Shown piece by piece: positions 1 to 14,887 of a stretch of DNA of 14,887 nucleotides. The notes under the pieces were generated by a model that worked only from the letters and a program-made list of their open reading frames with translations, was not told the DNA's origin and did no database searches. Made by a program: the position numbers and the translations under genes. The DNA is taken from IMG/VR virus record IMGVR_UViG_2617270938_000003. One strand, written 5' to 3'. Each line of letters begins with the position of its first letter. Within the stretch, counting starts at the first letter, position 1. The DNA comes from a virus. Its lineage: Duplodnaviria; Heunggongvirae; Uroviricota; Caudoviricetes.

Positions 1-11
1 GGAGCAGCAAA

Positions 12-374
12 ATGGCTAGCGAACGCAGTACTGATGTGCAGGCATTTATCGGGGAGCTGGACGGCGGCGTATTTGAAACCAAAATCGGCGCAGTTCTCAG
101 TGAAGTCGCTTCCGGTGTGATGAACACGAAAACCAAAGGTAAGGTCTCACTCAACCTGGAAATCGAACCATTTGATGAGAACCGTGTGAAAATCAAACAC
201 AAACTCTCATATGTTCGCCCGACTAACCGCGGGAAAATTTCCGAAGAAGACACCACCGAAACGCCGATGTATGTCAATCGCGGTGGTCGCCTGACTATTC
301 TGCAGGAAGACCAGGGACAATTACTGACTCTTGCCGGTGAACCTGACGGAAAACTCCGCGCAGCAGGTCATTAA
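12..374 (+). CDS. yfdP: Prophage early-region protein, YfdP-like (120 aa)
   Basis: ATG at 12 preceded by GGAG at 1-4. Length of 120 aa and position immediately upstream of a 274-aa and an HD-domain ~175-aa ORF reproduce the yfdP-yfdQ-yfdR order and sizes of E. coli CPS-53/KplE1 as I recall them. Symbol rests on that recollection, not a search. Confidence 0.5.
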   Translation: MASERSTDVQAFIGELDGGVFETKIGAVLSEVASGVMNTKTKGKVSLNLEIEPFDENRVKIKHKLSYVRPTNRGKISEEDTTETPMYVNRGGRLTILQEDQGQLLTLAGEPDGKLRAAGH

Positions 375-439
375 TATCGTTCTTAATTAACTGATTATTT
401 ATCTCATCACTGAATATCTTTATATAGTGAGGACTTATT

Positions 440-1264
440 ATGTCTCAGAACTTAGACGCAACCGCAATTAATCAAATCCATGCCCTTATTTCTGCTCAGG
501 GTGTTAATGAAATTATCAGTAAGATTGGTGCCGATGCTGTGGCATTGCCTGAGAATTTCCGCATTCATGATCTGGAAAAATTTAATTTAAATCGCTTCCG
601 TTTCCGTGGTGCGCTTTCCACTGCCAGCATCGATGACTTTACCCGTTATTCTAAAGATCTTGCGGATGAAGGCACCCGCTGCTTTATCGATGCCGATAAT
701 ATGCGTGCCGTCAGTGTGCTTAACCTAGGTACTATTGATGAGCCTGGTCACGCAGATAACACCGCCACTCTCAAACTGAAAAAGACAGCACCGTTCTCTG
801 CTCTGTTGTCTGTTAACGGCGAGCGTAACTCCCAGAAGTCACTGGCAGAATGGATTGAAGACTGGGCCGACTACCTTGTGGGCTTTGATGCTAATGGTGA
901 TGCCATTCAGGCAACAAAAGCGGCTGCGGCAGTCCGTAAAATCACGATTGAAGCAAACCAGACCGCTGATTTTGAAGACAATGACTTCAGCGGCAAACGC
1001 TCCCTGATGGAGTCTGTCGAAGCGAAGACCAAAGATATTATGCCAGTGGCATTTGAATTTAAATGCGTTCCGTTTGAAGGCCTGAAAGAACGTCCGTTTA
1101 AATTACGCCTCAGCATTATCACTGGCGATCGTCCTGTACTGGTTCTGCGCATTATTCAGCTGGAAGCAGTGCAGGAAGAAATGGCTAACGAATTTCGTGA
1201 TCTGCTTGTTGAGAAATTCAAGGACAGCAAAGTAGAAACCTTTATTGGTACTTTTACCGCCTGA
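440..1264 (+). CDS. yfdQ: Prophage protein, YfdQ-like (DUF2303-type), 274 aa
   Basis: ATG at 440 with GAGGA about 7 nt upstream. Uninterrupted 274-aa ORF with host-like codon usage; size and synteny match YfdQ between YfdP and YfdR. No catalytic motif recognised. Confidence 0.55.
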
Positions 1265-1276
1265 TTTCATTACTGC

Positions 1277-1298
1277 AAATGCCCCTGCGGGGGCATTT
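1277..1298 (+). terminator. GC-rich hairpin downstream of the yfdQ-like gene, possible weak terminator or RNA stability element
   Basis: Perfect 9-bp inverted repeat AAATGCCCC / GGGGCATTT around a 4-nt loop, 13 nt after the stop codon. Only a short T tract (TTT) follows, so intrinsic-terminator strength is uncertain. Confidence 0.3.
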
Positions 1299-1391
1299 AT
1301 GGAAACGTAATTGACTCAATAATCGCCGGATGGTGAGGGCTTTCTTTTACCAGAATTCAGCGCGGTGCAGCGCATATACGTGGAGAACAAA

Positions 1392-1916
1392 ATGTCATTT
1401 ATTAAAACTTTTTCCGGGAAGCATTTTTATTATGACAGGATAAATAAAGACGACATCGTTATTAACGATATCGCGGTTTCTCTTTCAAATATCTGTCGCT
1501 TTGCAGGACATCTTTCACATTTCTACAGCGTCGCCCAACATGCGGTGCTTTGCAGCCAACTGGTACCGCAGGAATTTGCTTTTGAAGCGTTAATGCATGA
1601 TGCAACAGAAGCGTATTGCCAGGACATCCCGGCGCCACTGAAACGCCTTCTTCCTGACTATAAACGGATGGAAGAAAAAATAGACGCCGTAATCCGTGAG
1701 AAATACGGGTTACCCCCGGTTATGAGTACGCCCGTGAAATATGCCGATCTCATCATGCTGGCAACCGAACGCCGCGATCTCGGGCTTGATGATGGCTCTT
1801 TCTGGCCCGTACTGGAAGGTATCCCGGCAACAGAGATGTTCAAAGTTATTCCACTGTCGCCAGGCCATACCTATGGGATGTTTATGGAACGCTTTAAAGA
1901 GTTAACTGAGTCGTAA
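1392..1916 (+). CDS. yfdR: HD-domain phosphohydrolase, YfdR-like (5'-deoxynucleotidase family)
   Basis: ATG at 1392 with GGAG 6 nt upstream; the track ORF begins at GTG 1365, and GTG 1380 would give 178 aa. The protein carries an H...HD metal-binding signature (AQHAVL ... LMHDATEAY) typical of HD hydrolases, and follows the yfdQ-like gene. Confidence 0.6.
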   Translation: MSFIKTFSGKHFYYDRINKDDIVINDIAVSLSNICRFAGHLSHFYSVAQHAVLCSQLVPQEFAFEALMHDATEAYCQDIPAPLKRLLPDYKRMEEKIDAVIREKYGLPPVMSTPVKYADLIMLATERRDLGLDDGSFWPVLEGIPATEMFKVIPLSPGHTYGMFMERFKELTES

Positions 1917-2024
1917 AAATCAGCACGTACGAATTCAAACTCTGCCATAAAAGAACATATAAGTAATTTATTAACATATAGATATAGGTTATATTACAAA
2001 TTGAAAAATTATTGGAGAGCAACA

Positions 2025-2891
2025 ATGAATCAAAATCCATTCTCATTCTATGACTTTCTTGGATATTTAATACCAGGTGGTTTTTTTATCCTATTAATGT
2101 ATTTCTGTGGTTTGACATTCGATCTAGATATTGTTATTGACTTAAGTGAATTGCTCAGAGGTCAAAGTCAAATCTTTGGCATTTTGAACTACGCTTCAAT
2201 AGTTATTATATCTTATATAGCTGGACATTTTATTTCTATCACGTCAGCATTTTTTATCGAAAAATACATGAATAAAGAATTAGGATATCCTTCCAAATAT
2301 CTATTTAAAAAATTGATAGATACCTCAGAAAGCATTTGTAGCCCATCCTGCGATGAGAGAAGCGCTGATAAAAAAACAAAAATAAAGAATCGCATAATCA
2401 AATGCGTATTATGTCCAATAATACTATGGGATTTTATAACACAAAAACTATGTTATTCTCAATCTCTACCATTTCATTTAGCTAATACAACATGGTTAAT
2501 GATCAAAGAAGGTTATGAGAAAAAGTTCATAACAAATCGCCAATTATTACAAGATAAAAACGGACTTGATGATGATCTCTTCAGATTGGCATATCATTAT
2601 GTTTATGAGTTTTCAAAACAACATCAAACAAAAATTCAAAACTATGTTGCATTATATGGTTTTTGCAGAAACATATGTTTAATCTTTATAATTTCATTTT
2701 GGGTATCAGTTCCAACCTTTATTTATCGATTATGTACTCATAGTGATTATCTTTATAGTTTACTTTCAATAATGCTTAGCTTTTTCTTCGTCTATGTTTT
2801 CTATGTTGGTTTTGTTAAATTTTATAGAAGATATACTTTAGAAGTATTAATGGCATTTGCTGTACTTCAAAGTAACGACATTATTCGTTAA
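2025..2891 (+). CDS. AT-rich polytopic inner-membrane protein of unknown function (prophage moron candidate)
   Basis: ATG at 2025 with GGAGA 6 nt upstream; the track ORF starts at TTG 2001. About four to five hydrophobic helices (e.g. FFILLMYFCGL, IVIISYIAGHFISITSAFFI, ICLIFIISFWVSVPTFIY, LSIMLSFFFVYVFYVGFV) flank a charged central segment. Codon usage is markedly more AT-rich than the flanking yfdR-like and xis/int genes. Confidence 0.6.
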   Translation: MNQNPFSFYDFLGYLIPGGFFILLMYFCGLTFDLDIVIDLSELLRGQSQIFGILNYASIVIISYIAGHFISITSAFFIEKYMNKELGYPSKYLFKKLIDTSESICSPSCDERSADKKTKIKNRIIKCVLCPIILWDFITQKLCYSQSLPFHLANTTWLMIKEGYEKKFITNRQLLQDKNGLDDDLFRLAYHYVYEFSKQHQTKIQNYVALYGFCRNICLIFIISFWVSVPTFIYRLCTHSDYLYSLLSIMLSFFFVYVFYVGFVKFYRRYTLEVLMAFAVLQSNDIIR

Positions 2892-2932
2892 TAATGTTGC
2901 TCCCGTGTGCAGACGGGATAATGGAGAAACGT

Positions 2933-3139
2933 ATGCTGAACCTCGATTGTGTTCCTATCTCAACTTATTGCAAAGAAACTGGCGAAACTCCTGAAGCAAT
3001 AAACAAACGTGTACAGCGCGGTGTTTGGCGTGAAGGTGTTCAGGTTTTAAAGGTTGAAGGCGTTAAGGAGAGGTGGATTGATCTTAGTGAGGTTGCAAAA
3101 TGGGCCAGACAAAACTGCTCAAACTACCGCGCGGCGTAA
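2933..3139 (+). CDS. Putative excisionase / small DNA-binding recombination directionality factor
   Basis: Small basic ORF directly upstream of, and overlapping by 40 nt, a tyrosine integrase gene. ATG at 2933 has GGAGA 5 nt upstream; alternative starts at 2894 and 2921. The W/R-rich C-terminal half (RGVWREGVQVLKVEGVKERWIDLSEVAKWAR) looks like Xis-type winged-helix proteins. Assignment is from position and composition, not a confirmed match. Confidence 0.5.
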   Translation: MLNLDCVPISTYCKETGETPEAINKRVQRGVWREGVQVLKVEGVKERWIDLSEVAKWARQNCSNYRAA

Positions 3140-4272
3140 CAATCAGGAAACACCGCCAGGGAGAAACGATCAATATAACTTTCACCTACAAAGGAGTTAG
3201 ATGTCGTGAGCCGCTTTCCAATCTGGAAGTAACACCAAAGAACATTAAATACGCCGAGCGTACACTCGGCGAAATCCATAATAAGATCGAAAGGGGAACA
3301 TTCATTTATGCAGAATATTTTCCCCGTTCTGCTCGTTTGAAAATTTTTGGTAATGCTGCTGCAGGCAAAACGGTAAAGATGTACCTGGACGAATATCTTG
3401 AAATCTGCGAAACAAGAAAACTTTCACCCTCTACGATTGGTGGCTATAAAAAATGCCGTAGTGCGTTAGCCTCACTTCACATTTGCCCTGCAAGTGAATT
3501 AACACCAGCAACCCTGAAAGCGTGGATTCAAAGCCAGAAAACAACCTTAAAAACCATTCGCAACCAGTTATCTTTCCTACGGTCAGCACTTGATGAAGCC
3601 GTGACCGATGGGGTACTTCAAATTAACCCCGTATCGTTAGTAACAGCTTCGCGCTACCAAAGTGATAAGTCAGAAGCAGAAAGCAGCTATGTGGTTGATC
3701 CGCTATCACCAGCAGAAGTTGATGCATTACTAGCAGCAGCCGGAAACAAACAATGGGAAAATCTGTTCCGGTTCGCCATACATACAGGCCTGCGTAGTTC
3801 TGAATTATGTGCCCTACGATGGCATGATATCGACTTTGTTGGAAAAACAGCCCATGTTCAGAGCGCAAGTGTTGTCGGAGTTATCAAAGGAACAAAGACA
3901 AAAGCCGGTACCCGTAAAGTTGAACTGACTGAAGAAGCAATGTTGGCGTTGATAAACCAGAAGCCATTTACATTCATGAAGGATGCTACTGTCTTTGAAG
4001 ATCCAAAGACCAATAAACCCTGGGCAAGTGCTGATGCAATTAGGAAAAAAGCATGGGTGCCAACATTGCGAAAAGCAGGTATTCGTTACAGAAACCCATA
4101 TCAAACCAGGCATACATTCGCCCCCAGCCATATCAGCCGGGGAGCAAACCTGTTTTGGCTTGCGGCTCAAATGGGCCATAAAGGGCCTGAAATGTTATTC
4201 AGGCACTATGGACAATACTTGAAAGAGTATGATGGGAGGGCAAGTATCAAGGATAAAAAGGCTTTATTTTAA
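3100..4272 (+). CDS. Phage tyrosine integrase (site-specific recombinase, lambda-Int superfamily)
   Basis: 390-aa ORF with GAGG 8 nt upstream. C-terminal catalytic signature of tyrosine recombinases is present: TGLRSSEL (box I Arg), HxxR in NPYQTRHTFA, and the nucleophile region GHKGPEMLFRHYGQY. The N-terminus resembles arm-binding domains. Confidence 0.85.
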   Translation: MGQTKLLKLPRGVTIRKHRQGETINITFTYKGVRCREPLSNLEVTPKNIKYAERTLGEIHNKIERGTFIYAEYFPRSARLKIFGNAAAGKTVKMYLDEYLEICETRKLSPSTIGGYKKCRSALASLHICPASELTPATLKAWIQSQKTTLKTIRNQLSFLRSALDEAVTDGVLQINPVSLVTASRYQSDKSEAESSYVVDPLSPAEVDALLAAAGNKQWENLFRFAIHTGLRSSELCALRWHDIDFVGKTAHVQSASVVGVIKGTKTKAGTRKVELTEEAMLALINQKPFTFMKDATVFEDPKTNKPWASADAIRKKAWVPTLRKAGIRYRNPYQTRHTFAPSHISRGANLFWLAAQMGHKGPEMLFRHYGQYLKEYDGRASIKDKKALF

Positions 4273-4881
4273 GTCATTATGCCAATCGTCTACTGTTTGA
4301 AACCAAATTTTTAACCTTTGCATAAAGGTACGATCCTTTTTGGGAGGATGGTACCTTTGAAAAGAAGTATGTAACGCTTCGATAACTCCCATACAAGCAT
4401 CAATTACTTCTTGTGCTTTAACCGGGCGATCGGCATCTGAAAGCTTGTGAGCGACCTCACAATCCAGAGTTGCTTTCTCTAGTACAGATGAGAACACCTC
4501 GTCAGGTATATACAGTCCTCTGCTTTCCAAAATGCAAATCAGTTTGGAAACTTGTTGAGCTTTAGCCAAGATAGTTAACAAGTATGAAACAGAAGCCTTT
4601 GTTCTATCCTTTTGCAACCTTAACAATCGATGCTTTGATGCTCTAATTTTAGGTTGAGTTGTCTGACTGAGCCAATAGTTAGAAGAAATATCAGAAATTT
4701 CAATAACTAACTTTGAAATAGCATCAATAATTGATTTCGATTCAGAACGTGTCGCCAGTTTTACAGAATTATTGTACGCAACTCGCCATCCAATGAAAAC
4801 TAAGCAGACGCTAACTACTGTGATACACCACGAATACTGTCCTATTTGTGCTACTAATGACATTGGTTCCGTACTGATCAA
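4264..4881 (-). CDS. Single-pass membrane protein, third gene of a GHKL-ATPase/STAS-like operon
   Basis: One N-terminal transmembrane helix (YSWCITVVSVCLVFIGW) followed by a soluble domain of about 170 aa. Probable TTG start at 4881 with AAGAGG 6 nt upstream (ATG alternative at 4863). A 10-nt gap separates it from the upstream gene; its 3' end overlaps the integrase stop convergently. Confidence 0.55.
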   Translation of the reverse strand: MISTEPMSLVAQIGQYSWCITVVSVCLVFIGWRVAYNNSVKLATRSESKSIIDAISKLVIEISDISSNYWLSQTTQPKIRASKHRLLRLQKDRTKASVSYLLTILAKAQQVSKLICILESRGLYIPDEVFSSVLEKATLDCEVAHKLSDADRPVKAQEVIDACMGVIEALHTSFQRYHPPKKDRTFMQRLKIWFQTVDDWHNDLK

Positions 4882-4891
4882 CTATCGCCTC

Positions 4892-5218
4892 TTATACTCT
4901 TTCTGGTTGTGCTAAATCAATAAATTTATCAATCTGTTCTTTGTAGAACGGAACATCACTTTTTATAATCAAACGTGCTTTAACGTTGGCTTTAGGTATC
5001 CCTTCCTTACGGATGAGACCTCCAAACGCCTCTTCTAAGAAAGAGGAACCAACACCCAGTGCTATACCGCGAAAATCAACCACAATCTCCTGTTCAGTAC
5101 CCTTCAGCGCAGGCACCAAAAACTCTCTACGAAATCTTTCCGCACTGTGTGGGCTATCCGTTGTGTAACGTCCGAAAGGTGTTCTGGAGAACTCCTTCGC
5201 TATGACGATATTTCTCAT
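4892..5218 (-). CDS. Small STAS-like (anti-sigma-antagonist-like, DUF4325-type) protein
   Basis: 108-aa ORF; ATG at 5218 with AGGAGA 7 nt upstream, lying inside the end of the upstream GHKL gene. The motif VVDFRGIALGVGSSFLEEAFGGL resembles the STAS/DUF4325 core. Fold assignment is from motif resemblance only. Confidence 0.55.
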   Translation of the reverse strand: MRNIVIAKEFSRTPFGRYTTDSPHSAERFRREFLVPALKGTEQEIVVDFRGIALGVGSSFLEEAFGGLIRKEGIPKANVKARLIIKSDVPFYKEQIDKFIDLAQPERV

Positions 5219-5222
5219 AAAA

Positions 5223-6134
5223 TCATCTCCTGGGAACCAGCGACCATTGTAGTAAAGTACCCGGTATGTACTCAGCTAGCTTCTCACATCGAGGACTACT
5301 GTCATTAGAATTATAGCTATAACGAGCCCTTCCTGTTAGTATCAGAAGTGTCTCATTATCCTCACAACCTGCCCCAATAGGTCTCTTGATATCTTCAGAG
5401 CCATTTCCCCGTCCGGAACCAACAAAGCGGGATTCCCCTACTAACATAGCTCTTTCCACAGAAGATACTTCGTTTTGAATGCTATGACCATCACCATTAG
5501 GCACGAAACTTCTATAAATCCCCAATCCAAGGTCACAAACGATAAAAACGACTTTATTTTCATCACGATTGAACCAAGCGCACTGCCACCATCGTTTACC
5601 TTTGAGAAGCTGAATATCTGACTCGAACCCCTCATCTTCATACGCATGATGAGAAACATTGAGCAAAGCTTCACTAATCGCTGTCAGCAGTAAGCCTAAC
5701 TGTTCATTATTAAGCAGAGCACTTTTCTGCAGCATGAGTACTGTTTCAACAATATGCTCGTAAGGTTCGACAGCTGACTGAAAGTATCGTTCCTCCCTCG
5801 TAAGTGCATTCAGTTTCTCTTCTGTGCCAGCAAGCAAAGCACGAGCAAGTCCAGTACCAACGATCCATCTATGCCCAGATGGGTTATCATCCTTTTTAGG
5901 CCATTTAAAACGTATAAAATTAGGGTCCCGGGTTAAAAATTGAGCTCTATTTACTATGGCAAAGAACAGTACCGATGCCGCAGCTGAGGCAAATTTTACC
6001 TTGGACAAATCAACTATAACTCGACCTTTATTTTTTACTCCAATCGATTCAATCGAGTTGATGAAGTTCAATGTCCCAGCCCTAGAATCATCTGAGTAAA
6101 TGCAAAATTTGCTTGGGGGTACCAGTATGGTCAT
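5223..6134 (-). CDS. GHKL-superfamily (HATPase_c) ATPase/kinase-like protein with N-terminal extension
   Basis: 303-aa ORF. All three Bergerat-fold motifs were read directly from the minus strand: N-box EALLNVSHHAY (5640-5672), G1 box DLGLG (5520-5534) and G2 box GSGRGNG (5400-5420). Residues 40-56 (VDLSKVKFASAAASVLF) resemble the STAS phospho-acceptor region. No strong SD at the ATG. Confidence 0.7.
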   Translation of the reverse strand: MTILVPPSKFCIYSDDSRAGTLNFINSIESIGVKNKGRVIVDLSKVKFASAAASVLFFAIVNRAQFLTRDPNFIRFKWPKKDDNPSGHRWIVGTGLARALLAGTEEKLNALTREERYFQSAVEPYEHIVETVLMLQKSALLNNEQLGLLLTAISEALLNVSHHAYEDEGFESDIQLLKGKRWWQCAWFNRDENKVVFIVCDLGLGIYRSFVPNGDGHSIQNEVSSVERAMLVGESRFVGSGRGNGSEDIKRPIGAGCEDNETLLILTGRARYSYNSNDSSPRCEKLAEYIPGTLLQWSLVPRR

Positions 6135-6286
6135 AGCGATGTCATTCTTATACGATGGATTTATAGATTATCTACTATTCATAGTTGGTTATGAAGACTG
6201 GGATATAACAGTAAAAGATACGTGTAAGATCCGCAAGATAGTTAATGTCGAAAAAAATCATTAATTACATCAAGTTAGTGATATTT

Positions 6287-6318
6287 GGACTCGGGTTCAA
6301 CTCCCGCCAGCTCCACCA
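6287..6318 (+). other. att core: copy of the 3' end of tmRNA (ssrA) without the rest of the gene
   Basis: GGACTCGGGTTCAACTCCCGCCAGCTCCACCA. The last 27 nt are identical to the 3' end (T-arm, acceptor stem, CCA) of E. coli tmRNA as I recall it; similarity decays upstream. The ~345 nt of tmRNA that should precede it are absent, since that space is intergenic and a protein-coding gene. Confidence 0.75.
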
Positions 6319-6352
6319 AATATTGATGTACTGAAGTTCAGTAAAGTCTACT

Positions 6353-6387
6353 AAGCCCGCACAGCACAAGCTCTGCGGGCTTTTTTA
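6353..6387 (+). terminator. Rho-independent terminator downstream of the tmRNA 3'-end copy
   Basis: Stem AAGCCCGCA / TGCGGGCTT (9 bp) with a 12-nt loop, immediately followed by TTTTTT at 6381-6386. Confidence 0.6.
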
Positions 6388-6484
6388 CGTCTATTGTAGT
6401 CTAGTGAGAATTGCTGAGAACTACGAGTTATGGCACCCTGAATGGGACCCACGAAGATGGGTCCTAAAATCGAGGGTCCCAAAC

Positions 6485-7714
6485 ATGGCCAAAATCGCTA
6501 AGAAGCTCACTGACACTGAAATCAAAAGCACCAAACCTGCCGAAAAAGAGGTTAACCTTTTTGACGGCGATGGTTTGCTGTTGCGAATCGCTCCCCTGGC
6601 GAAGGGAGGGAAGAAAAATTGGTATTTCAGATATGCAGTGCCTGTGACCAAAAAGCGAACTAAGGTGAGCTTAGGAACCTATCCTCACCTTACACTTGCG
6701 AAGGCACGAGCTTTACGTGATGAATACTTGTCGTTGCTTACAAATGGTATAGACCCCCAAGTTCATAACAACCAAAAAGCCAATGCACTGAAAGATGCCA
6801 CGGAACATACATTTCAAGCAGTAGCCAAGAAGTGGCTTGATGAGAAAGTCAAAACGTCAGGCATCTCCCAAGATCATGCTAACGACATCTGGCGAAGCCT
6901 AGAGAGAAATATCTTTTCCACATTGGGTGATACCCCAATTAAGGAGATTCGCCCTAAAATGCTTAAACAGCATTTAGAACCCATAGAAAAACGAGGTGTC
7001 CTTGAAACACTTCGCCGCATCATATCCCGCCTGAATGAAATTTTCCGCTATGCAGCAACAGAAGAACTCATAGAATTCAACCCGGCAGACAACCTGGGGC
7101 AACGGTTCAGCAAGCCAAAAAAACAGAATATGCCAGCATTACCCCCTTCCGAACTCCCTCGCTTCTTGGTTGCTCTAAACAATGCTTCTATCCGTTTGGA
7201 AACAAGGCTACTGATTGAGTGGCAACTTCTCACATGGGTTCGCCCAGGTGAAGCTGTTCGCACAAGATGGTCAGATATTGATATTGAAACTGGCATGTGG
7301 AACATCCCGGCGGAGTTTATGAAAATGAAGAAGCCTCACAAAGTTCCACTGAGCAAAGAAGCTTTGCGAGTTTTGGATTTAATGAAAGTCATCAGCGGGC
7401 ATAGAGAGTGGGTGTTCCCCAGTATCAAAGCTCCACTCAATCACATGCATGAACAAACAGCTAATGCGGCCATAATCCGTATGGGTTTCGGAGGTGAGCT
7501 TGTAGCTCACGGTATGCGATCCATTGCTAGAACGGCTGCTGAGGAGTCTGGCAAGTTTAGGACTGATGTCTTAGAAGCCGCCCTTGCCCACTCGAAGAAA
7601 GATGAAATAATTGCAGCCTACAATCGTGCAGAGTATCTCACTGAACGGGTGGTTCTCATGCAATGGTGGAGTGACTATGTTTCGTCTCAAAAATGCAAAG
7701 TTATTGCCGCATAA
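6485..7714 (+). CDS. intA: P4-type tyrosine integrase, IntA-like (CP4-57 family), tmRNA-associated
   Basis: From ATG 6485 (GAGGG upstream) the protein MAKIAKKLTDTEIKSTKP...NLFDGDGLLLRIAP...WYFRY...TKKRTKVSLGTYP aligns along its length with E. coli IntA as recalled (LTDTEIK, DGDGL, DIWRSLER, ALETLRR, KKNMP, MQWW). It sits immediately 3' of an ssrA 3'-end sequence as in E. coli. The track ORF starts at GTG 6404. Confidence 0.85.
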   Translation: MAKIAKKLTDTEIKSTKPAEKEVNLFDGDGLLLRIAPLAKGGKKNWYFRYAVPVTKKRTKVSLGTYPHLTLAKARALRDEYLSLLTNGIDPQVHNNQKANALKDATEHTFQAVAKKWLDEKVKTSGISQDHANDIWRSLERNIFSTLGDTPIKEIRPKMLKQHLEPIEKRGVLETLRRIISRLNEIFRYAATEELIEFNPADNLGQRFSKPKKQNMPALPPSELPRFLVALNNASIRLETRLLIEWQLLTWVRPGEAVRTRWSDIDIETGMWNIPAEFMKMKKPHKVPLSKEALRVLDLMKVISGHREWVFPSIKAPLNHMHEQTANAAIIRMGFGGELVAHGMRSIARTAAEESGKFRTDVLEAALAHSKKDEIIAAYNRAEYLTERVVLMQWWSDYVSSQKCKVIAA

Positions 7715-7776
7715 CTCTCCCATGATGGATTAACTATCTTGATTTAGTTAAAGAATTAATAATCACACCATTAACC

Positions 7777-7826
7777 TATGTGGACTAAGCATAGCCATTT
7801 ACAAATGGGGACATTGAGTCCACATA
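7777..7826. repeat. 50-bp two-fold symmetric site (nested inverted repeats around a central AC dinucleotide)
   Basis: TATGTGGACT-aagcatag-CCATTT-AC-AAATGG-ggacattg-AGTCCACATA. Outer 10-bp arms are perfect reverse complements, as are the inner 6-bp arms; both share the same centre (7801/7802). It lies in the intA / serine-recombinase intergenic region, about 170 bp upstream of the recombinase start. Confidence 0.6.
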
Positions 7827-7996
7827 ACGAAAGCTGTCGGTCATATCAGCTAAATAATTCACATCTCTTCTCGATTATCATACACCTCGAAGATCTACCA
7901 AATTCGCTCTAATCAATGATAAAACAGTTGAATTCGGTTAAAATTTGATCAATTTTATCCTCTACATTGTATTGAATCACCCATGAGGTTTCGTGC

Positions 7997-9553
7997 ATGG
8001 CTAGCGAAAATGACAAAAATCATAGAGTTAGGGTCGCGCAGTACTTGAGGATGTCTACCGACCATCAGCAATATTCTTTACATAATCAGTCCGAATATAT
8101 CAAAGATTATGCTGAAAAGAACAATATGGAAATCGCTTATACCTACGATGATGCAGGTAAGAGCGGAGTCAGTATCGTAGGCAGGCATTCTTTGCAGCAG
8201 TTACTTAGCGATGTAGAACAAAAGAAAATAGATATACAGGCTGTATTATTTTATGATGTGAGCCGTTTTGGTCGTTTTCAAAATAGTGATGAAGCGGCAT
8301 ATTATTCCTTTCTATTTGAGAGAAATGGTGTAGATCTTATATATTGTTCCGAACCTATACCCACTAAAGATTTCCCTTTAGAGTCCTCTGTTATACTGAA
8401 TATAAAAAGATCTAGTGCTGCATATCACAGCAGGAATTTATCTGAAAAGGTATTTATAGGGCAAGTAAATTTAATAAAGCTTGGTTATCATCAAGGCGGT
8501 ATGGCTGGTTATGGGCTGAGACGTCTTTTAGTAGACGAAAATGGCATAGCTAAAGAAATATTGAGTTTCCGCAAAAGAAAGAGTATTCAAACAGATAGGG
8601 TAATATTAATTCCGGGACCAAAAAATGAAATAAAAATTGTAAATAGAATATATGATCTCTTTATAGATAATAACGTCCCAGAATTCATTATTGCTGAGAG
8701 ATTAAATGAACAGAACATACCTGCAGAAAATGGAACATTATGGACTCGTGCAAAAATACATCAAATTTTGACAAATGAAAAATATATTGGAAACAACATA
8801 TATAACAAAACCTCATCTAAATTAAAAAGTAGGCTTGTAAAAAACCCCAAACATGAATGGGTTAGATGTGACAAGGCATATAAACCTATTATTTCAAAGA
8901 AAAAATACAATAAAGCTCAAGAAATAATTCAGCTCCGATCCATTCATTTGACTAATGAAGATCTATTAGAAAAACTAAAACAAAAATTAGAATCTAATGG
9001 AAAACTATCAGGCTTTATCATTGATGAAGATGATACAGGCCCTTCATCTTCTGTTTATAGAACCCGATTTGGTGGTCTTTTAAGAGCATATACTTTGATT
9101 GGTTATAAGCCAGAACATGATTACAGCTATCTCAAAATAAATGAAGCACTAAGATCATTTCACTCAGAGATAATTGAGGATTTTAAGGGTGAAATTTTAA
9201 AAAGTAACTGTCATATAGACGAGTATAAATATGCCCCAATGCTTTACATCAATGATGAGTTTTTAATTTCCATCCTTGTTACTAAATGCATACATATGAA
9301 ATCAGGTAAACTTAGATGGAAAGTCCGGTTTGATAACTCACAGAAAGCAGACATAACAATTGTTATACGAATGAATTCACAAAATATTTCACCTCTTGAT
9401 TTTTATATCATACCAAAGATTGAAAACGAATATAATAAAATGTGTATGACGGAAACAAACAACATTCGATTAGATCTCTATAGATTTGATAATCTTGATA
9501 AACTTCTACAAATTATTACTCGCATGAAAGTGAGGGAACTATATGCTGCCTGA
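7997..9553 (+). CDS. Large serine recombinase (resolvase/invertase catalytic domain plus recombinase domain)
   Basis: N-terminus RVAQYLRMSTDHQ matches the serine-recombinase active-site motif (YxRxSTxxQ, nucleophile about Ser20, codon near 8054). Resolvase-like block ...DDAGKSGVSIVGRHSLQQLL...VLFYDVSRFGR and recombinase-domain-like block GYHQGGMAGYGLRR...LWTRAKIHQILTNEKYIGN follow. No classical CxxC zinc-ribbon seen in the C-terminal third. GAGG 8 nt upstream of ATG; very AT-rich. Confidence 0.8.
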   Translation: MASENDKNHRVRVAQYLRMSTDHQQYSLHNQSEYIKDYAEKNNMEIAYTYDDAGKSGVSIVGRHSLQQLLSDVEQKKIDIQAVLFYDVSRFGRFQNSDEAAYYSFLFERNGVDLIYCSEPIPTKDFPLESSVILNIKRSSAAYHSRNLSEKVFIGQVNLIKLGYHQGGMAGYGLRRLLVDENGIAKEILSFRKRKSIQTDRVILIPGPKNEIKIVNRIYDLFIDNNVPEFIIAERLNEQNIPAENGTLWTRAKIHQILTNEKYIGNNIYNKTSSKLKSRLVKNPKHEWVRCDKAYKPIISKKKYNKAQEIIQLRSIHLTNEDLLEKLKQKLESNGKLSGFIIDEDDTGPSSSVYRTRFGGLLRAYTLIGYKPEHDYSYLKINEALRSFHSEIIEDFKGEILKSNCHIDEYKYAPMLYINDEFLISILVTKCIHMKSGKLRWKVRFDNSQKADITIVIRMNSQNISPLDFYIIPKIENEYNKMCMTETNNIRLDLYRFDNLDKLLQIITRMKVRELYAA

Positions 9554-10439
9554 AAAAAATGAATTCCCAATAATTCAAATTGAGATTGCAAAAATAAAAT
9601 TTCTTAACCCACGAACAAGAAATAAGTTAGTGCATGAAGAAATAAAGGAAAGCATAAAAAAAAGAGGATTAAGCAAGCCTATAAGCGTAAGAGCTATTGA
9701 TGAAGGCGATTTCAAATATGCTTTAATTTGTGGTCAAGGGAGAATAGAGGCTCTCGTTGCATTAGGTGAAACTATTATTCCAGCAATTATAAGAGATGTA
9801 TCAGAAGAAGATGCTTACGTTATGAGTTTAGTTGAAAACATTGCAAGGAGAAGACCACGTTCTAATGAGTTATTACAGGTGATTAAAGACATGAAAATCA
9901 GAGGACTTTCAGACTCCGAAATAAGTGAGATTACTGGATATTCATCGAACTGGGTGAGCAGTATTAATATGCTACTTGATAAGGGAGAGCATAAACTTCT
10001 CTCAGCAGTCGAACGGGGTAATTTGCCTCTGTATCTCGCAGTGCAATTTGCAAGATGTGAAACTGAGGAAGCACAAGATATTCTTACCGAAGCATATGAT
10101 AAAAAATTAATAAAAAGTCGGGACATTATAAAGATAAAACACATTCTAAATCAAAGAACAGTTGGGAATAAAGGTGCAAAAGCAGCCGGATTTTATTATC
10201 ACAAACCATCAAAAAGGATGACTGCAGAGGAGTTGATTGAGCTTTATGAAAATAGTATCGCTGAACATAAATCTGTTTATAACAACTCAAAATTCATAAA
10301 AACCAACCTACTAATAGTAAATGAGATTTTTAACATCATAATGATGAATAAAAGCTTTCAACATATACTTGAACAAGAGAATCTTTCAGAACTACCATCT
10401 CAGATATTAACCCCAGTAAACAAAGAGGTATTAAAATGA
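9543..10439 (+). CDS. ParB/Srx-fold protein with HTH (ParB-like N-terminal domain), 298 aa
   Basis: Collinear with the chromosomal ParB N-terminal domain: ...NPR..., GQGRIEA at 9732-9752 (ParB GERRxRA-type arginine motif), IPAIIRDVSEEDAYVMSLVENIARR (ParB box ENLQR-like), then an HTH-like LSDSEISEITGYSSNWVSS. Start overlaps the recombinase stop by 11 nt, with GAGGGA 6 nt upstream. Confidence 0.75.
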   Translation: MLPEKNEFPIIQIEIAKIKFLNPRTRNKLVHEEIKESIKKRGLSKPISVRAIDEGDFKYALICGQGRIEALVALGETIIPAIIRDVSEEDAYVMSLVENIARRRPRSNELLQVIKDMKIRGLSDSEISEITGYSSNWVSSINMLLDKGEHKLLSAVERGNLPLYLAVQFARCETEEAQDILTEAYDKKLIKSRDIIKIKHILNQRTVGNKGAKAAGFYYHKPSKRMTAEELIELYENSIAEHKSVYNNSKFIKTNLLIVNEIFNIIMMNKSFQHILEQENLSELPSQILTPVNKEVLK

Positions 10440-11332
10440 TTCAGATACGTTTTGGCGATAATTTTATTTACCTGGAAACTAATAAGTTAATTCCATCTAA
10501 GGAATTATTAGAAAACGTAAAGCGAAGCCATAAATATCATCAAATAGTTACCTCTATCGAAAGCTTAGGTATTATTGAACCAATAATAGTATTCTATGAC
10601 AAAGATAAAGATGTCACTAAGATACTTGATGGCCATTTAAGGGTTGAGGCTTTAAAAGACTTAGGTATAGAAAAAGCTCCATGTATACTTTCGAGCATAG
10701 ATGATGCTTTCACTCCTAACAAACAAGTGAATCATATAAATGTAGTTGAAGAACATAGAATGATAATTAAGTCTCTGGCAAAAGTATCAATTGAAAAACT
10801 TAGTGCTGCTTTGGGCATATCTGTTGATGCCATAAAAGATAAAGCGAATGTGATGAACGGCATAGATCCAAGTGTAATTGCGAAACTTTCTGATAAACCT
10901 ATACCTAAGGCTACATTTGACGTTTTGAGGAAAATGAAGCCAATTCGCCAAATTGAAGCAGTCGGTACAATGATTAATTTTGATAATTATAGTAAAAAAT
11001 TTGCAATGAGCATCTTGGATGCAACACCGGCATCGATGATAGTAAATAAAGGGAAAAACACTCCCTATAAAAAGGATATAAAAAAAACCATACTTCGTCT
11101 GGAACAAGAAATGGCAACAACTTCGGAAGAAACGAAAAAGCTTCAAACCGAGTATGGTTCAGATATGTTGAAATTCGTTATAATCCAGTCATATATTAAT
11201 AAATTACTTGGCAATTCTAAAGTTCTTCATTGGTTCTTAGAAAACGAGGTTGATTATCTTAATGAGTTAAAAAGAATTTCTAGAATAAATTCTTTGGATG
11301 ATAAGACTCTTACTGAAAACAGCAAGTCATAG
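10436..11332 (+). CDS. Second ParB/Srx-fold protein, divergent paralogue-like, 298 aa
   Basis: N-terminal segment IIEPIIVFYDKDKDVTKILDGHLRVEALKDLGIEKAPCIL (DGHLRVEA at 10628-10651) has the ParB/Srx arrangement of a beta-strand, Gly/Arg motif and hydrophobic helix. ATGA start/stop overlap with the upstream gene, AGAGG SD. Same length as its neighbour. Confidence 0.6.
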   Translation: MIQIRFGDNFIYLETNKLIPSKELLENVKRSHKYHQIVTSIESLGIIEPIIVFYDKDKDVTKILDGHLRVEALKDLGIEKAPCILSSIDDAFTPNKQVNHINVVEEHRMIIKSLAKVSIEKLSAALGISVDAIKDKANVMNGIDPSVIAKLSDKPIPKATFDVLRKMKPIRQIEAVGTMINFDNYSKKFAMSILDATPASMIVNKGKNTPYKKDIKKTILRLEQEMATTSEETKKLQTEYGSDMLKFVIIQSYINKLLGNSKVLHWFLENEVDYLNELKRISRINSLDDKTLTENSKS

Positions 11333-12560
11333 TCATGTTTTATATAGCCTAAATAAACCAAGAAGTATACTTACACAACGACCTTCACGCCGAAGAAGCT
11401 GTCAGATACGCCAGCAACCAAAGCATTACGTTTAAGTGTCAGTCATTGATACGAAGGGATAACTGCGTATCAGCAGCCGGACATTGAGTCGAATAAAGGC
11501 TGGTAGAGAGGGACAGTTCTGTGTCACCGGGAGATTCGTCAGAAACATCAGCGGCAGAACAGATGAACCAGCAATTGGTAGTGCACAGAAAACTCTCCAG
11601 TATTTAATTATTCAACTTAACACTAAAAAAAATCACATATTTAATATCATAATTTTTCTTTGGTCTACGTATGCGAGAGTTATTGTGGCTTTAACCGGGT
11701 ATTAGGAGTCGTTTCAGATAAAAGATGTTCTTCGATTCGACTGGACTTGGTAATAGCAATAAGTAATCGTTAATATTGAAGGACGAAAGGCTACTTCAAA
11801 ACAAAGTAACCTTTCCAATATTCCCATCTATGGGACAAGTGGTACATTAACTGCACATAGTGCAGGATACATATGACATAAAACTTTTTATTTATGGCAT
11901 ACATTATAAATAACTTGTATTTTATGAATGTCAATAGGTTCTTGTTTAATACTTTTAAAATAATTAATTGATTGTTTTTATTATAGCTTCGCTTGTACAA
12001 GCGAAGATCCTATTGTTCTTGAATGAATAATGCCAATTATAAGAGAAGCAAGGGCTAACTCTGCGAAGCCGCTGCGCTTGCTTCTTCGAGTTCCCCTTGC
12101 TTTTCTGCCCTTCGGTTAGAAAAGAAGCCAAACTGCTACCAACCTTGAATCTCTATATTTTTGAATAGACAAACATTACCCGCTCCCTTAATCACCACTA
12201 TCAAACATAAAAAATCATCTTACAAATAACCCCATACACATCATTTTAGATTGCGACCTTATTAAATTAAAAATTCAACCTTAGATGGAATTTAATGTAC
12301 AAGGAGTGTCCTACTGTAACGGAGAATTTTAAACATTAAAAATTACAACTATGGTTTGTCATAGCCTGTACATCTATTCACCTCATGCATATGCACTAAG
12401 AAAGCTTTTTTGAATACTGGAGTTGTCCCTGCTAAAACGGACACGGCTAATTAACTGCTAATATGGCATCACGATATTCGCGTGGCGATTTCATGTTCAA
12501 CCCCTTGTGTGGATGCAGATTATTATAATCCTCTATCTATTCTGCCATTGTTTCCATCAT

Positions 12561-12767
12561 TTAGACTGCATCCAGCAGATCATCTACGTACACATAATCC
12601 CGCTTGAACGTCTTTACAAACGATTCTGCCATGCCGTTACTTCCCGGACTGCGTACTGGTGTAGTACACACGATGAACCACAGTGAACTAGCGAATGTGC
12701 GCGTGGCATCGGCTGTGCAGCAATTATGCCAATGACACTGGCTCCATTGACGGCAATGACCTGACAT
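12561..12767 (-). pseudogene. Remnant of an IS3-family (IS2-group) transposase orfB
   Basis: Translation ...TRTFASSLWFIVCTTPVRSPGSNGMAESFVKTFKRDYV matches the DDE-glutamate region of IS2 InsD (...[38 protein letters not shown]...) as recalled. The reading frame is only 68 codons, with neither the N-terminal catalytic region nor the normal C-terminus intact. Confidence 0.6.
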
Positions 12768-12927
12768 CTACAATCCCGCTACAAAGCATTTACTCCATGA
12801 GTCATTGCACTTGCTGAGCTACACGAACACACTAAAACCAGATAATAATTAATCGCTGTATAAGCTCGTAACAAGCGGAACTTTAAGGCAAAATAGGGCC
12901 ATCTTCCACCTTCACAAAGTTACGCTA

Positions 12928-14518: not shown

Positions 14519-14887
14519 GGTAATGACTCCAACTTATTGATAGTGTTTTATGTTCAGATAATGCCCGATGACTTTGTCATGCAGCTCCACCGATTTTGAG
14601 AACGACAGCGACTTCCGTCCCAGCCGTGCCAGGTGCTGCCTCAGATTCAGGTTATGCCGCTCAATTCGCTGCGTATATCGCTTGCTGATTACGTGCAGCT
14701 TTCCCTTCAGGCGGGATTCATACAGCGGCCAGCCATCCGTCATCCATATCACCACGTCAAAGGGTGACAGCAGGCTCATAAGACGCCCCAGCGTCGCCAT
14801 AGTGCGCTCACCGAATACGTGCGCAACAACCGTCTTCCGGAGACTGTCATACGCGTAAAACAGCCAGCGCTGGCGCGATTTAGCCCC
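14519..14887 (-). mobile_element. IS1 insertion sequence (partial; continues beyond window end)
   Basis: Begins with the characteristic IS1 terminal sequence GGTAATGACTCCAACTTATTGATAGTGTTTTATGTTCAGATAATG. The following DNA is the reverse complement of the insB end of IS1; the encoded protein ends ...[23 protein letters not shown], as in IS1 InsB. Confidence 0.9.
14534..14887 (-). CDS. insB: IS1 transposase InsB / InsAB' C-terminal portion (5' part lies beyond the window)
   Basis: Minus-strand frame encodes ...[88 protein letters not shown]. The frame stays open upstream to the window edge. Confidence 0.85.

Follow-up and report, generated by a model that had tools for sequence, protein, structure and literature searches.

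A serine recombinase and two ParB-like paralogues form an apparent cargo cassette of other mobile elements

Overview

The window analyzed here is the whole of a 14,887-nucleotide stretch from IMG/VR record IMGVR_UViG_2617270938_000003. It contains a trio of genes composed of a serine recombinase (REC) and two ParB-like proteins (PB1 and PB2). The trio is best read as a single representative of a widespread cassette, so far undescribed, that other mobile elements bear as cargo. Enterobacteria have it on an island with a P4-type integrase at ssrA, and carriers in other taxa include a Tn7-like element, plasmids, and chromids. Cargo status is supported by the chromosomal location of the copies, the constancy of the integrase, the different cargo found in the same slot of strain 0-4, and the TniQ context.

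The initial annotation did not recognize the trio as a named system, and the searches agree with it. In PADLOC-DB v2.0.0, REC is unmatched, no model covers the trio, and PB1 and PB2 have marginal matches only, to the ParB-like part of methyltransferase models. A known defense system was rejected for want of a real PADLOC match. PHROGs labels both ParB-like proteins "unknown function", and no published description of the trio was found in the openly accessible literature.

The locus and its boundaries

All three genes lie on the plus strand. REC (7997-9553) encodes 518 amino acids, and PB1 (9543-10439) and PB2 (10436-11332) encode 298 each. The 11-nt REC/PB1 overlap and the 4-nt PB1/PB2 overlap (ATGA), first noted for the interval 7997-11332, are borne out by the open reading frame coordinates. 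The genes are translationally coupled and almost never separate. Chance reading frames are ruled out because all three genes have Pfam domain matches; the proposed HMM check recovered Resolvase, Recombinase, ParB_N, and RepB domains. GC content is 0.30-0.36 over positions 8001-11500 versus 0.44-0.47 in the integrase gene and 0.45-0.48 in hsdM (30-36% versus 44-48%), so the trio is indeed more AT-rich than its flanks.

On the evidence of sequence comparison, the trio is a discrete cargo cassette spanning about 7682-11382. The left end was placed using the trio-less island of strain 0-4, whose integrase is 96% identical to the window up to position 7681 and is then followed by different cargo. 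Homology stops 33 nt before the integrase stop codon. The left end and leader (7682-7996, plus strand) extend from this limit to the REC start codon, with a GAGG ribosome-binding site 9 nt 5' of the ATG and a mean column identity of 97% among E. coli variants. On the right, E. coli variants share a 3' tail of about 50 nt (11333-11382, plus strand) that runs up to ...TACACAAC. Variants that are 95% identical diverge at this point into two unrelated downstream sequences. The suggestion that the trio is a separately acquired unit is thus upheld by the other cargo borne by the same integrase and by the sharp ends. Promoter and terminator scans gave the same results as shuffled sequence. What looked like an empty site in strain EC2641 had been scrambled by IS elements and gave no information.

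The leader contains an imperfect 50-bp palindrome at 7777-7826 (TATGTGGACT-N8-CCATTT AC AAATGG-N8-AGTCCACATA; no strand assigned). Two half-sites were found versus 0.18 expected. The palindrome is kept in BL21 and strain H5 and decayed in AR_0119, in which the integrase gene upstream has become a pseudogene. Candidate roles are a protein-binding site, a recombination site, and the integrase terminator.

Some features of the boundaries would suit a small self-mobile integrative element, with REC as the integrase, PB1 and PB2 as directionality or accessory factors, and att sites at about 7682 and about 11382. Both ends are sharp, and the palindrome is close to the left one. H5-type islands carry a decayed integrase 3' fragment directly after the trio, as if the cassette had entered the integrase gene and replaced its 3' end. 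Against this, islands of the window type lack such a fragment behind the trio, and no convincing terminal direct or inverted repeats or att sites were found at either end. Together with the distribution of the copies described below, these points make self-mobility quite unlikely.

The recombinase

REC was correctly described at the outset as a serine recombinase without a zinc ribbon. Pfam matches are to Resolvase (E 7.8e-22, aa 14-152) and Recombinase PF07508 (E 6e-22, aa 210-312), and no zinc-ribbon family was matched. Motifs of the catalytic domain include YLRMSTDHQ and YDVSRFGR; the YDVSRFxR form is the same in PhiC31 Int. Among 19 diverse homologues, Y16, R63, and D87 are invariant and R18, S20, Q24, R90, and R93 are nearly so. 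Two of the three homologue searches returned almost solely near-identical enterobacterial proteins and added little diversity. By its residues REC is predicted to be catalytically intact, as all catalytic residues are present.

The order of domains is a catalytic domain, an alpha-E helix, the recombinase domain, an HNH-repeat-like helical module (about aa 319-367, with a weak HNH_repeat match), a long helix, and a beta-rich C-terminal domain. The family of this C-terminal domain comprises 1370 clusters. The AF2 model (pLDDT 84) has short helices, one long helix, and a beta domain in its C-terminal part. Foldseek matches the model to SPbeta SprA, Bxb1, and PhiC31, with most alignments only 320-370 columns long and confined to the N-terminal catalytic and recombinase domains.

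In large serine recombinases, a zinc-ribbon and coiled-coil domain normally picks and pairs the att sites and governs synapsis and directionality. In REC, residues 320-518 contain three scattered cysteines only, and neither Pfam nor the AF2 model revealed the coiled coil. REC shares its catalytic and PF07508 domains with PhiC31 Int, Bxb1 Int, SPbeta SprA, and CcrA/B. It differs from them in that the HNH-repeat-like module and beta-rich domain replace the zinc ribbon and coiled coil, in its obligate link to two ParB-like genes, and in that no att sites or element ends were identified. The NCBIfam model for staphylococcal CcrB scores 63 against a cut-off of 900.

A Tn3-type transposon resolvase was rejected since REC is 518 aa, has no adjacent transposase, and is conserved without transposases in other taxa. 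The initial annotation had allowed for a transposase just outside the window. None was found in the window or the 45-kb context, apart from unrelated IS remnants.

The ParB-like paralogues

PB1 is composed of an N-terminal ParB/Srx domain, an HTH DNA-binding domain, and a C-terminal helical region. It matches ParB_N (1.5e-13) and RepB (8.4e-08) in Pfam and scores 60.0 with TIGR00180, for which the cut-off is 58.45. PB2 has a divergent ParB/Srx N-terminus, an HTH/RepB domain, and long C-terminal helices, with Pfam matches to RepB (2.2e-24) and, weakly, ParB_N (1.1e-05). The earlier view of two 298-aa ParB-like proteins, the second more divergent, is upheld. An hhalign probability of 96.6% indicates that PB1 and PB2 are paralogues. 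The PB2 AF2 model (pLDDT 69) matches Myxococcus ParB, Noc, and KorB over about 200 residues in Foldseek. The Agrobacterium PB2 appears in one source under the name "plasmid stabilization protein ParB".

Both proteins have the full ParB architecture with non-canonical nucleotide motifs. The motifs first reported for PB1 held up on proper alignment: CGQGRIEA and VENIARR align with GERRYRA and VENLQRE of Thermus Spo0J. In PB2, the corresponding motifs are DGHLRVEA and VEEHRM. The canonical GERRxRA CTP motif is replaced by GQGR in PB1 and GHLR in PB2, and the last Arg and Ala alone are retained. CTP binding and hydrolysis by either protein are therefore uncertain. No parS-like palindrome was recognized.

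ParB-type CTP-switch proteins that act without ParA include Noc, KorB, ICEclc BisD, and Shigella VirB. PB1 and PB2 share their architecture, match Spo0J, Noc, ParB, and KorB in sequence and fold, and likewise have no ParA. They differ in being tandem paralogues, in their GQGR/GHLR box II, and in being coupled to a recombinase, whereas Noc, KorB, BisD, and VirB are coupled to transcription control or membrane binding.

Distribution in Escherichia coli

The trio is present in 656 of 5426 complete E. coli genomes (about 12%), including BL21(DE3), and also occurs in other Enterobacteriaceae. Its 657 places in these genomes are all chromosomal; of 709 matching places, none was on a plasmid, with thousands of plasmids searched. 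In every E. coli context inspected, the trio lies downstream of the same P4-type integrase, in the integrase-proximal slot of the island at ssrA. The tmRNA locus is E. coli defense hotspot #9 (PMC10121019). Neighbors of the trio include hsdMSR, Hxs with TIGR04141, and a type ISP enzyme, and the island also has a MOB relaxase. In BL21(DE3), the trio is kept in an island stripped of everything else. Self-movement finds no evidence in E. coli, where all copies are chromosomal, the integrase type is the same in every context inspected, and no terminal repeats were found.

The initial annotation had also judged the trio to be something other than a partition locus. Neither the genes of the window nor those annotated across the 45 kb surrounding the identical PapRG-04-4 locus include a ParA or Walker ATPase. 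A partition locus was rejected on this ground, together with the chromosomal location of all E. coli copies and the degenerate CTP motifs.

In the window, hsdMSR lies directly downstream of the trio, and type I restriction-modification neighbors occur beside it in two other taxa. An inversion or phase-variation switch governing such genes is nonetheless very improbable. No credible inverted repeats were found on either side of a promoter or an hsdS segment, the neighbors vary among islands and taxa, and the BL21 trio persists without any neighbor.

Relatives in other taxa

At least 484 species scored in the scan, with relatives at 35-45% identity. The order REC-PB1-PB2 is kept in 76 of 80 loci from other species, which answers in the affirmative the question of joint movement. 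Gene order, protein sizes, and overlaps are all retained in Agrobacterium, Piscinibacter, and Paraburkholderia. The trio follows TniQ in a Tn7-like element. Many copies are on megaplasmids or chromids of Rhizobiaceae and Burkholderia, and many non-E. coli copies are on Mb-sized chromosomal contigs. ParA was absent beside the trio in the plasmid and Logan contexts. Among the two genes closest to the trio on either flank at about 70 loci, the 25 commonest Pfam families had no ParA-specific member, although generic AAA ATPases were represented. IMG/VR matches are mostly at the edges of provirus calls. The trio was rejected as a phage gene, the INPHARED database offering one dubious 7.5-kb "Bacteriophage sp." contig.

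Relatives of the trio usually adjoin defense systems. Among 99 downstream neighbor proteins in other taxa are WYL (six), ZacA (three), TmtA, DrmD, GajB, and SoFic, as well as type I methyltransferases and McrBC/EVE proteins, and plasmid copies adjoin AbiEii, Fic, and Abi. Upstream neighbors are a mixture of host and toxin-antitoxin genes. This counts against a defense reading, since it is expected for a module at an island edge, the place where an integrase would sit.

The copies in other taxa also bear on self-mobility. Some genomes have two copies of the trio, as a self-mobile element might, but copies in one genome are less than 90% identical. This divergence and the lack of terminal repeats argue against recent self-transposition. 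The same integrase type upstream in E. coli also weighs against it, and tRNA genes lie near the trio in just 6 of 60 loci. No common left junction was seen among alphaproteobacterial copies, for which the alignment was uninformative.

In alphaproteobacteria, the majority of copies have an additional divergent HTH gene, and some have a ParDE toxin-antitoxin pair as well. A supposed upstream conserved DNA motif in these copies was the 5' coding end of the HTH gene (MSFPKKGKFFP). Most alphaproteobacterial copies also have a structured RNA of roughly 230 nt downstream of PB2, with strand-specific covariation and no Rfam match. A protein-coding fragment or target gene was rejected for this segment, which has no codon periodicity. 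The E. coli version of the trio is without the element.

The ParDE pair and HTH gene, on the same conserved block in some alphaproteobacterial copies, raise the possibility of island or plasmid maintenance. REC would resolve multimers or tandem copies of the carrier at a nearby site, and PB1 and PB2 would have a tethering or architectural role independent of ParA. The addition of ParDE would make this a classical stability cluster of resolution, partition-like function, and post-segregational killing. The megaplasmid and chromid copies, the name given to the Agrobacterium PB2, and the MOB relaxase on the E. coli island fit such a role. The absence from E. coli plasmids, the many copies on large chromosomal contigs, and the retention of the trio in the emptied BL21(DE3) island do not, and no res-like repeated site was found. 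Maintenance is accordingly a minority explanation, unlikely yet deserving of some weight.

At four loci (L039, L070, L077, and L084), integrase-less cargo of 3.6-4.4 kb lies immediately 3' of the module and encodes a McrBC/EVE-like or DUF676 protein. On both sides of this cargo are direct repeats of 36-210 nt, which begin within the final hairpin of the RNA element and run about 100-200 nt into the promoter of a neighboring WYL gene. These four loci also speak against a defense reading of the module. They and the highly variable downstream cargo would fit an integron-like capture platform, in which REC inserts promoterless or promoter-bearing defense cassettes at the 3' end of the operon. In alphaproteobacteria, the insertion site would be the terminal hairpin of the RNA. 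Such a platform is highly unlikely. The repeats are found in just 4 of 64 genome loci and 0 of 33 IMG/VR loci, their extension into the WYL promoter fits homologous recombination or duplication equally well, and the E. coli version lacks the RNA. An integron proper was rejected on the same counts and because REC is serine-type, whereas IntI is a tyrosine recombinase.

Comparison with stability clusters and anti-phage islands

The pSM19035 beta-delta/omega-epsilon/zeta and RK2 parCBA-parDE clusters combine a serine recombinase with segregation-type and toxin-antitoxin genes. The trio has comparable parts, namely a serine recombinase and segregation-type proteins that bind DNA, joined by ParDE in some alphaproteobacterial copies. 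In pSM19035 and RK2, the recombinase is a small resolvase that has a defined res or six site, and the partition proteins have a cognate NTPase or unrelated folds. The trio also differs from these clusters in being mostly chromosomal.

The integrase of the Vibrio cholerae PLE is a large serine recombinase whose excision activity is triggered by a phage protein (PMC6002521). It resembles REC as a large serine recombinase inside an anti-phage island and is a precedent for infection-coupled recombinase activity. PLE Int differs from REC in being canonical, in moving its own island, and in having no ParB-like partners.

Proposed function

Gene content and context tentatively suggest, at somewhat less than even odds, that the trio is a machine for site-specific recombination assisted by ParB-type proteins, borne by islands as cargo and probably acting in exclusion or defense. 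PB1 and PB2 would form a heterodimeric DNA-loading or bridging factor. This heterodimer may supply the site selection and synapsis control that REC has lost, so that REC, PB1, and PB2 would act as one regulated machine for site-specific recombination or cleavage. The DNA substrate would most likely be incoming or competing DNA (phage, plasmid, or rival island) and not the ends of the cassette itself, given the lack of any sign of self-movement, the defense slot, and the defense neighbors. The cassette would then be an exclusion or defense module. Recombinases in defense islands are usually mobility genes, so the association of the trio with defense could merely reflect mobility. To our knowledge, no serine recombinase is known as a defense effector.

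A more specific form of the proposal is rather improbable. In it, the trio would be an anti-MGE or genome-editing machine in which a sliding or bridging heterodimer of the ParB type finds the target and licenses a serine recombinase without its own site-pairing domain. The structured RNA of most alphaproteobacterial members would be a scaffold, sensor, or specificity factor.

Significance

The current annotation of these genes as "recombinase family protein" and "ParB/RepB/Spo0J partition protein" wrongly implies a partition locus. The presence of the trio in BL21(DE3) makes it open to direct testing. The associated RNA is a new, strongly constrained motif. If the ParB pair does replace the site-pairing domain, it would represent a new mode of control for serine recombinases, enzymes already in wide use for genome engineering, and a new job for ParB-type switches. 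A role in defense or exclusion, if true, would add a recombinase-based mechanism to bacterial immunity. Should the anti-MGE or genome-editing reading be true, the trio would be without precedent as a serine recombinase system directed by ParB-type proteins and possibly assisted by RNA.

The recombinase–ParB trio

REC, PB1, and PB2 are encoded on the + strand of the window. REC (7997-9553) is a serine recombinase of 518 aa, and PB1 (9543-10439) and PB2 (10436-11332) are ParB-like proteins of 298 aa each. These positions, the 11-nt overlap of REC with PB1, and the ATGA overlap of PB1 with PB2 were reported in the initial annotation and are confirmed by ORF calls. The AT-richness noted there is also observed, with a GC content of 0.30-0.36 in the trio vs 0.44-0.47 in the integrase gene on its 5' side and 0.45-0.48 in hsdM.

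Pfam searches bear out the proposed families. REC matches Resolvase (7.8e-22) and Recombinase (6e-22), PB1 matches ParB_N (1.5e-13) and RepB (8.4e-08), and PB2 matches RepB (2.2e-24) and, weakly, ParB_N (1.1e-05). The trio proteins score below the cut-off of every specific NCBIfam family; PB1 passes the generic ParB domain model TIGR00180 (60.0 vs a cut-off of 58.45). As had been claimed, ParA is absent, both from the window and from the annotated context of the PapRG-04-4 locus, and a partition locus is thus ruled out.

REC, PB1, and PB2 proteins

REC keeps the catalytic signature of its family. Among 19 diverse homologues, Y16, R63, and D87 are invariant, and R18, S20, Q24, R90, and R93 are nearly so. 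The AF2 model (pLDDT 84) contains a catalytic domain, an alpha-E helix, and a recombinase domain, followed by a small helical module (aa 320-367), a long helix (aa 377-402), and a beta-rich domain (aa 405-510). Foldseek neighbours of the model are the SPbeta SprA, Bxb1, and PhiC31 integrases. Most of these alignments cover only the two N-terminal domains (320-370 columns), and the few longer ones, to SprA, fit poorly. Pfam gives neither a zinc-ribbon nor a coiled-coil match, in agreement with the lack of an obvious zinc ribbon described earlier. Residues 319-364 weakly match HNH_repeat (E 0.039), a repeat present in several tandem copies in related recombinases. The C-terminal domain belongs to a family with 1370 clusters at 50% identity. 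A transposon resolvase was considered and rejected.

An hhalign probability of 96.6% identifies PB1 and PB2 as paralogues. Profiles of both match Spo0J, Noc, ParB, and KorB. About 200 residues of the PB2 model (pLDDT 69) align with Myxococcus ParB, Noc, and KorB, and the model has long helices at its end. Hydrolysis and binding by ParB CTPases depend on the Glu and the first Arg of the GERR motif. At the position of GERR in Spo0J, PB1 has GQGR and PB2 has GHLR, so, judged by this motif, canonical CTPase activity is doubtful. Both proteins fall in PHROG families listed as unknown function.

Relatives outside Enterobacteria

Relatives identified by tblastn keep the gene order and have comparable gene sizes and overlaps; identity is 42-46% for REC and 31-39% for PB1 and PB2. 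When one genome per species was scanned with a PB2 alignment as query, at least 484 of the first 600 candidate stretches listed encoded a relative. Those listed are mostly from Rhodobacterales and Hyphomicrobiales, with some from beta- and gammaproteobacteria. The trio is in the same order in 76 of 80 fetched loci, which agrees with the idea that it moves as a unit; the remainder are two decayed remnants and two loci ended by contig ends. A few genomes have two divergent copies. The trio forms a discrete unit that is ancient and tightly coupled. Because REC has lost the usual site-pairing domain and is inseparable from two ParB paralogues, PB1 and PB2 would probably serve in DNA loading, bridging, or licensing, with all three proteins probably acting as one recombination or cleavage machine.

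Some relatives are found on plasmids, e.g., pAt of Agrobacterium fabrum C58, a 30-kb Paraburkholderia plasmid, and a Piscinibacter plasmid, where the trio lies directly behind the TnsABC-TniQ genes of a Tn7-like element. The 657 places occupied in E. coli are all chromosomal. A function in island or plasmid maintenance is rather unlikely.

The trio is absent from curated phage genomes, and IMG/VR matches are mostly at the edges of provirus calls. The sole phage-collection match is a human-faecal contig (MT837206.1, 7458 bp, "UNVERIFIED: Bacteriophage sp."), which is probably not a phage genome. It has a complete trio on the - strand (REC 2648-4201, PB1 1782-2678, PB2 884-1789).

Island and cassette ends in E. 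coli

Window positions 7700-12900 match E. coli PapRG-04-4 at 100% identity. That strain has, in order, ssrA, a P4-type integrase, the trio, an IS remnant, and hsdMSR. The end of a tandemly inserted prophage (yfdPQR) at ssrA occupies window positions 1-6400. Rfam identifies a partial tmRNA 3' end at 6192-6318 (E 1.7e-5, below the gathering score), adjoined by an IsrM-like match. The two matches (6192-6386) mark where att is duplicated, between this prophage and the integrase island of the ssrA site.

Two other regions of the prophage end were observed. A three-gene cluster on the - strand (4264-6134) adjoins the prophage integrase and encodes proteins of 303 aa (weak HATPase_c_2 match), 108 aa (STAS-like, DUF4325), and 205 aa (no Pfam match). 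All three belong to PHROG families of unknown function, and the cluster is possibly an accessory or defence module carried by the prophage. A very AT-rich region (2001-3139, 29-31% GC) looks like a moron. It contains the gene of a 296-aa multi-pass membrane protein, which weakly matches Csx27 in PADLOC (E 1.4e-5), and behind it an ORF of 81 aa.

A trio match is present in 656 of 5426 complete E. coli genomes, 619 of which cover at least 80% of the query. BL21(DE3) is among them (NZ_CP053602.1 2623822-2629765); its ssrA island is made up of the integrase, an intact trio, and IS1, with glaH directly next. Near-identical recombinases also occur in Salmonella, Klebsiella, Enterobacter, Citrobacter, and Cronobacter. 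In E. coli, the tmRNA locus is known as defence hotspot #9 (PMC10121019), and the trio is cargo of an integrase island in this hotspot.

The left end of the cassette is seen in strain 0-4, which has a 96% identical integrase and other cargo. Homology to the window ends at 7681, 33 nt ahead of the integrase stop codon. The 0-4 cargo in this slot (1996-5952 of locus L152) encodes a 138-aa hypothetical protein, a "response regulator receiver domain" protein, and an "ATP-binding protein", and may be another uncharacterised hotspot system. At the right end, 95%-identical variants share sequence only up to ~11380-11383 (...TACACAAC), past which two unrelated sequences follow. Depending on the E. coli island, the 3' neighbours are hsdMSR, a TIGR04141 protein with an Hxs cluster, a type ISP enzyme, or nothing. 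Islands of the strain H5 type have a decayed integrase 3' fragment directly behind the trio; window-type islands have none. In the window, an IS3-family transposase remnant (12447-12716, - strand) lies between the trio and hsdM. The identical RefSeq locus annotates it as an "integrase core domain" pseudogene and has no feature across 11384-12450.

No terminal direct or inverted repeats were found around the trio. A 50-bp imperfect palindrome (7777-7826) is present between the integrase stop and the REC start. Its arms have perfectly symmetric outer 10-bp and inner 6-bp blocks with 8 non-symmetric bases between them and a central AC, and it is decayed in strain AR_0119. That the trio is a small self-integrating element is improbable, and that it is a phase switch is very improbable.

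Extra parts and neighbours in relatives

In most alpha- and betaproteobacterial loci, a divergently transcribed gene for a protein of ~110-130 aa lies directly 5' of REC (on the - strand, e.g., L002:7532-7936, L064:2931-3326, and L017:6856-7353). The protein has the N-terminus MSFPKKGKFFP and an HTH-like segment (WTGANERTVKNWF) with only marginal Pfam HTH matches. In one subgroup, a ParD/ParE pair follows this gene in the same conserved block (L017:6196-6760). The E. coli trio has neither the HTH-like gene nor ParDE.

Among 99 proteins from the two genes 3' of the module in ~70 non-enterobacterial loci, the commonest families are defence-related. These include WYL (six), AAA_5/EVE (McrBC-like), ResIII, GmrSD_N, Fic, HsdM, ZacA (three), TmtA, DrmD, GajB, SoFic, and PDC-S24. 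The 5' neighbours are a mixture of ParE, AbiEii, Mrr, and ordinary host genes.

RNA element 3' of PB2

A GC-rich element of ~230 nt is found directly 3' of the PB2 stop codon in 64 of 80 loci. Examples are L010:4812-5044, L020:9391-9634, and L085:10904-11111; ~100 other loci also have it (alignments A8 and A9; model R1). The 129-nt core of the element has 92.8% mean pairwise identity where the trio genes have 76-79% (DNA). The consensus folding energy is -88 for the sense strand vs -46 for the antisense. The structure is composed of five helices with 31 pairs, 99.4% paired; sliding the partner columns lowers pairing to 35-51%. Compensatory changes are observed in 12 pairs, a number reached by 0 of 500 shuffles. 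One-sided changes are nearly all G-U, with A-C very rare, which points to a + strand RNA.

No match to the element is present in Rfam 15. A covariance model places it right behind PB2 in 39 further loci and does not find it in the window, Agrobacterium C58, or the beta- and gammaproteobacterial loci tested. The element is thus clade-specific and no part of the core mechanism.

Four loci have 3.6-4.4 kb of cargo, lacking an integrase, next to the RNA element, with direct repeats on either side that start within its terminal hairpin (L039:11086-11251 and 14970-15135; L077:10569-10780 and 14535-14746; L070:11044-11105 and 15507-15565; L084:10971-11053 and 14611-14693). The cargo encodes an EVE-McrB/McrC-like or DUF676 protein and separates the module from a gene for a WYL regulator, the module's immediate neighbour in other loci. 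No such repeats are found in 33 IMG/VR loci having the element. That the trio is an integron-like capture platform, acquiring cargo of this kind, is highly unlikely.

Role of the trio

The favoured role is, tentatively, exclusion or defence, on the basis of the genomic context and the status of the trio as island cargo. The trio was rejected as a catalogued defence system, and no description of the REC-PB1-PB2 combination was found in the literature searched, consistent with the earlier view that it is not a named system. Its parts belong to known families, and the combination is new to the literature examined. The trio is rated as a serine recombinase system with ParB-type partners, most alphaproteobacterial relatives of which come with an undescribed RNA motif.
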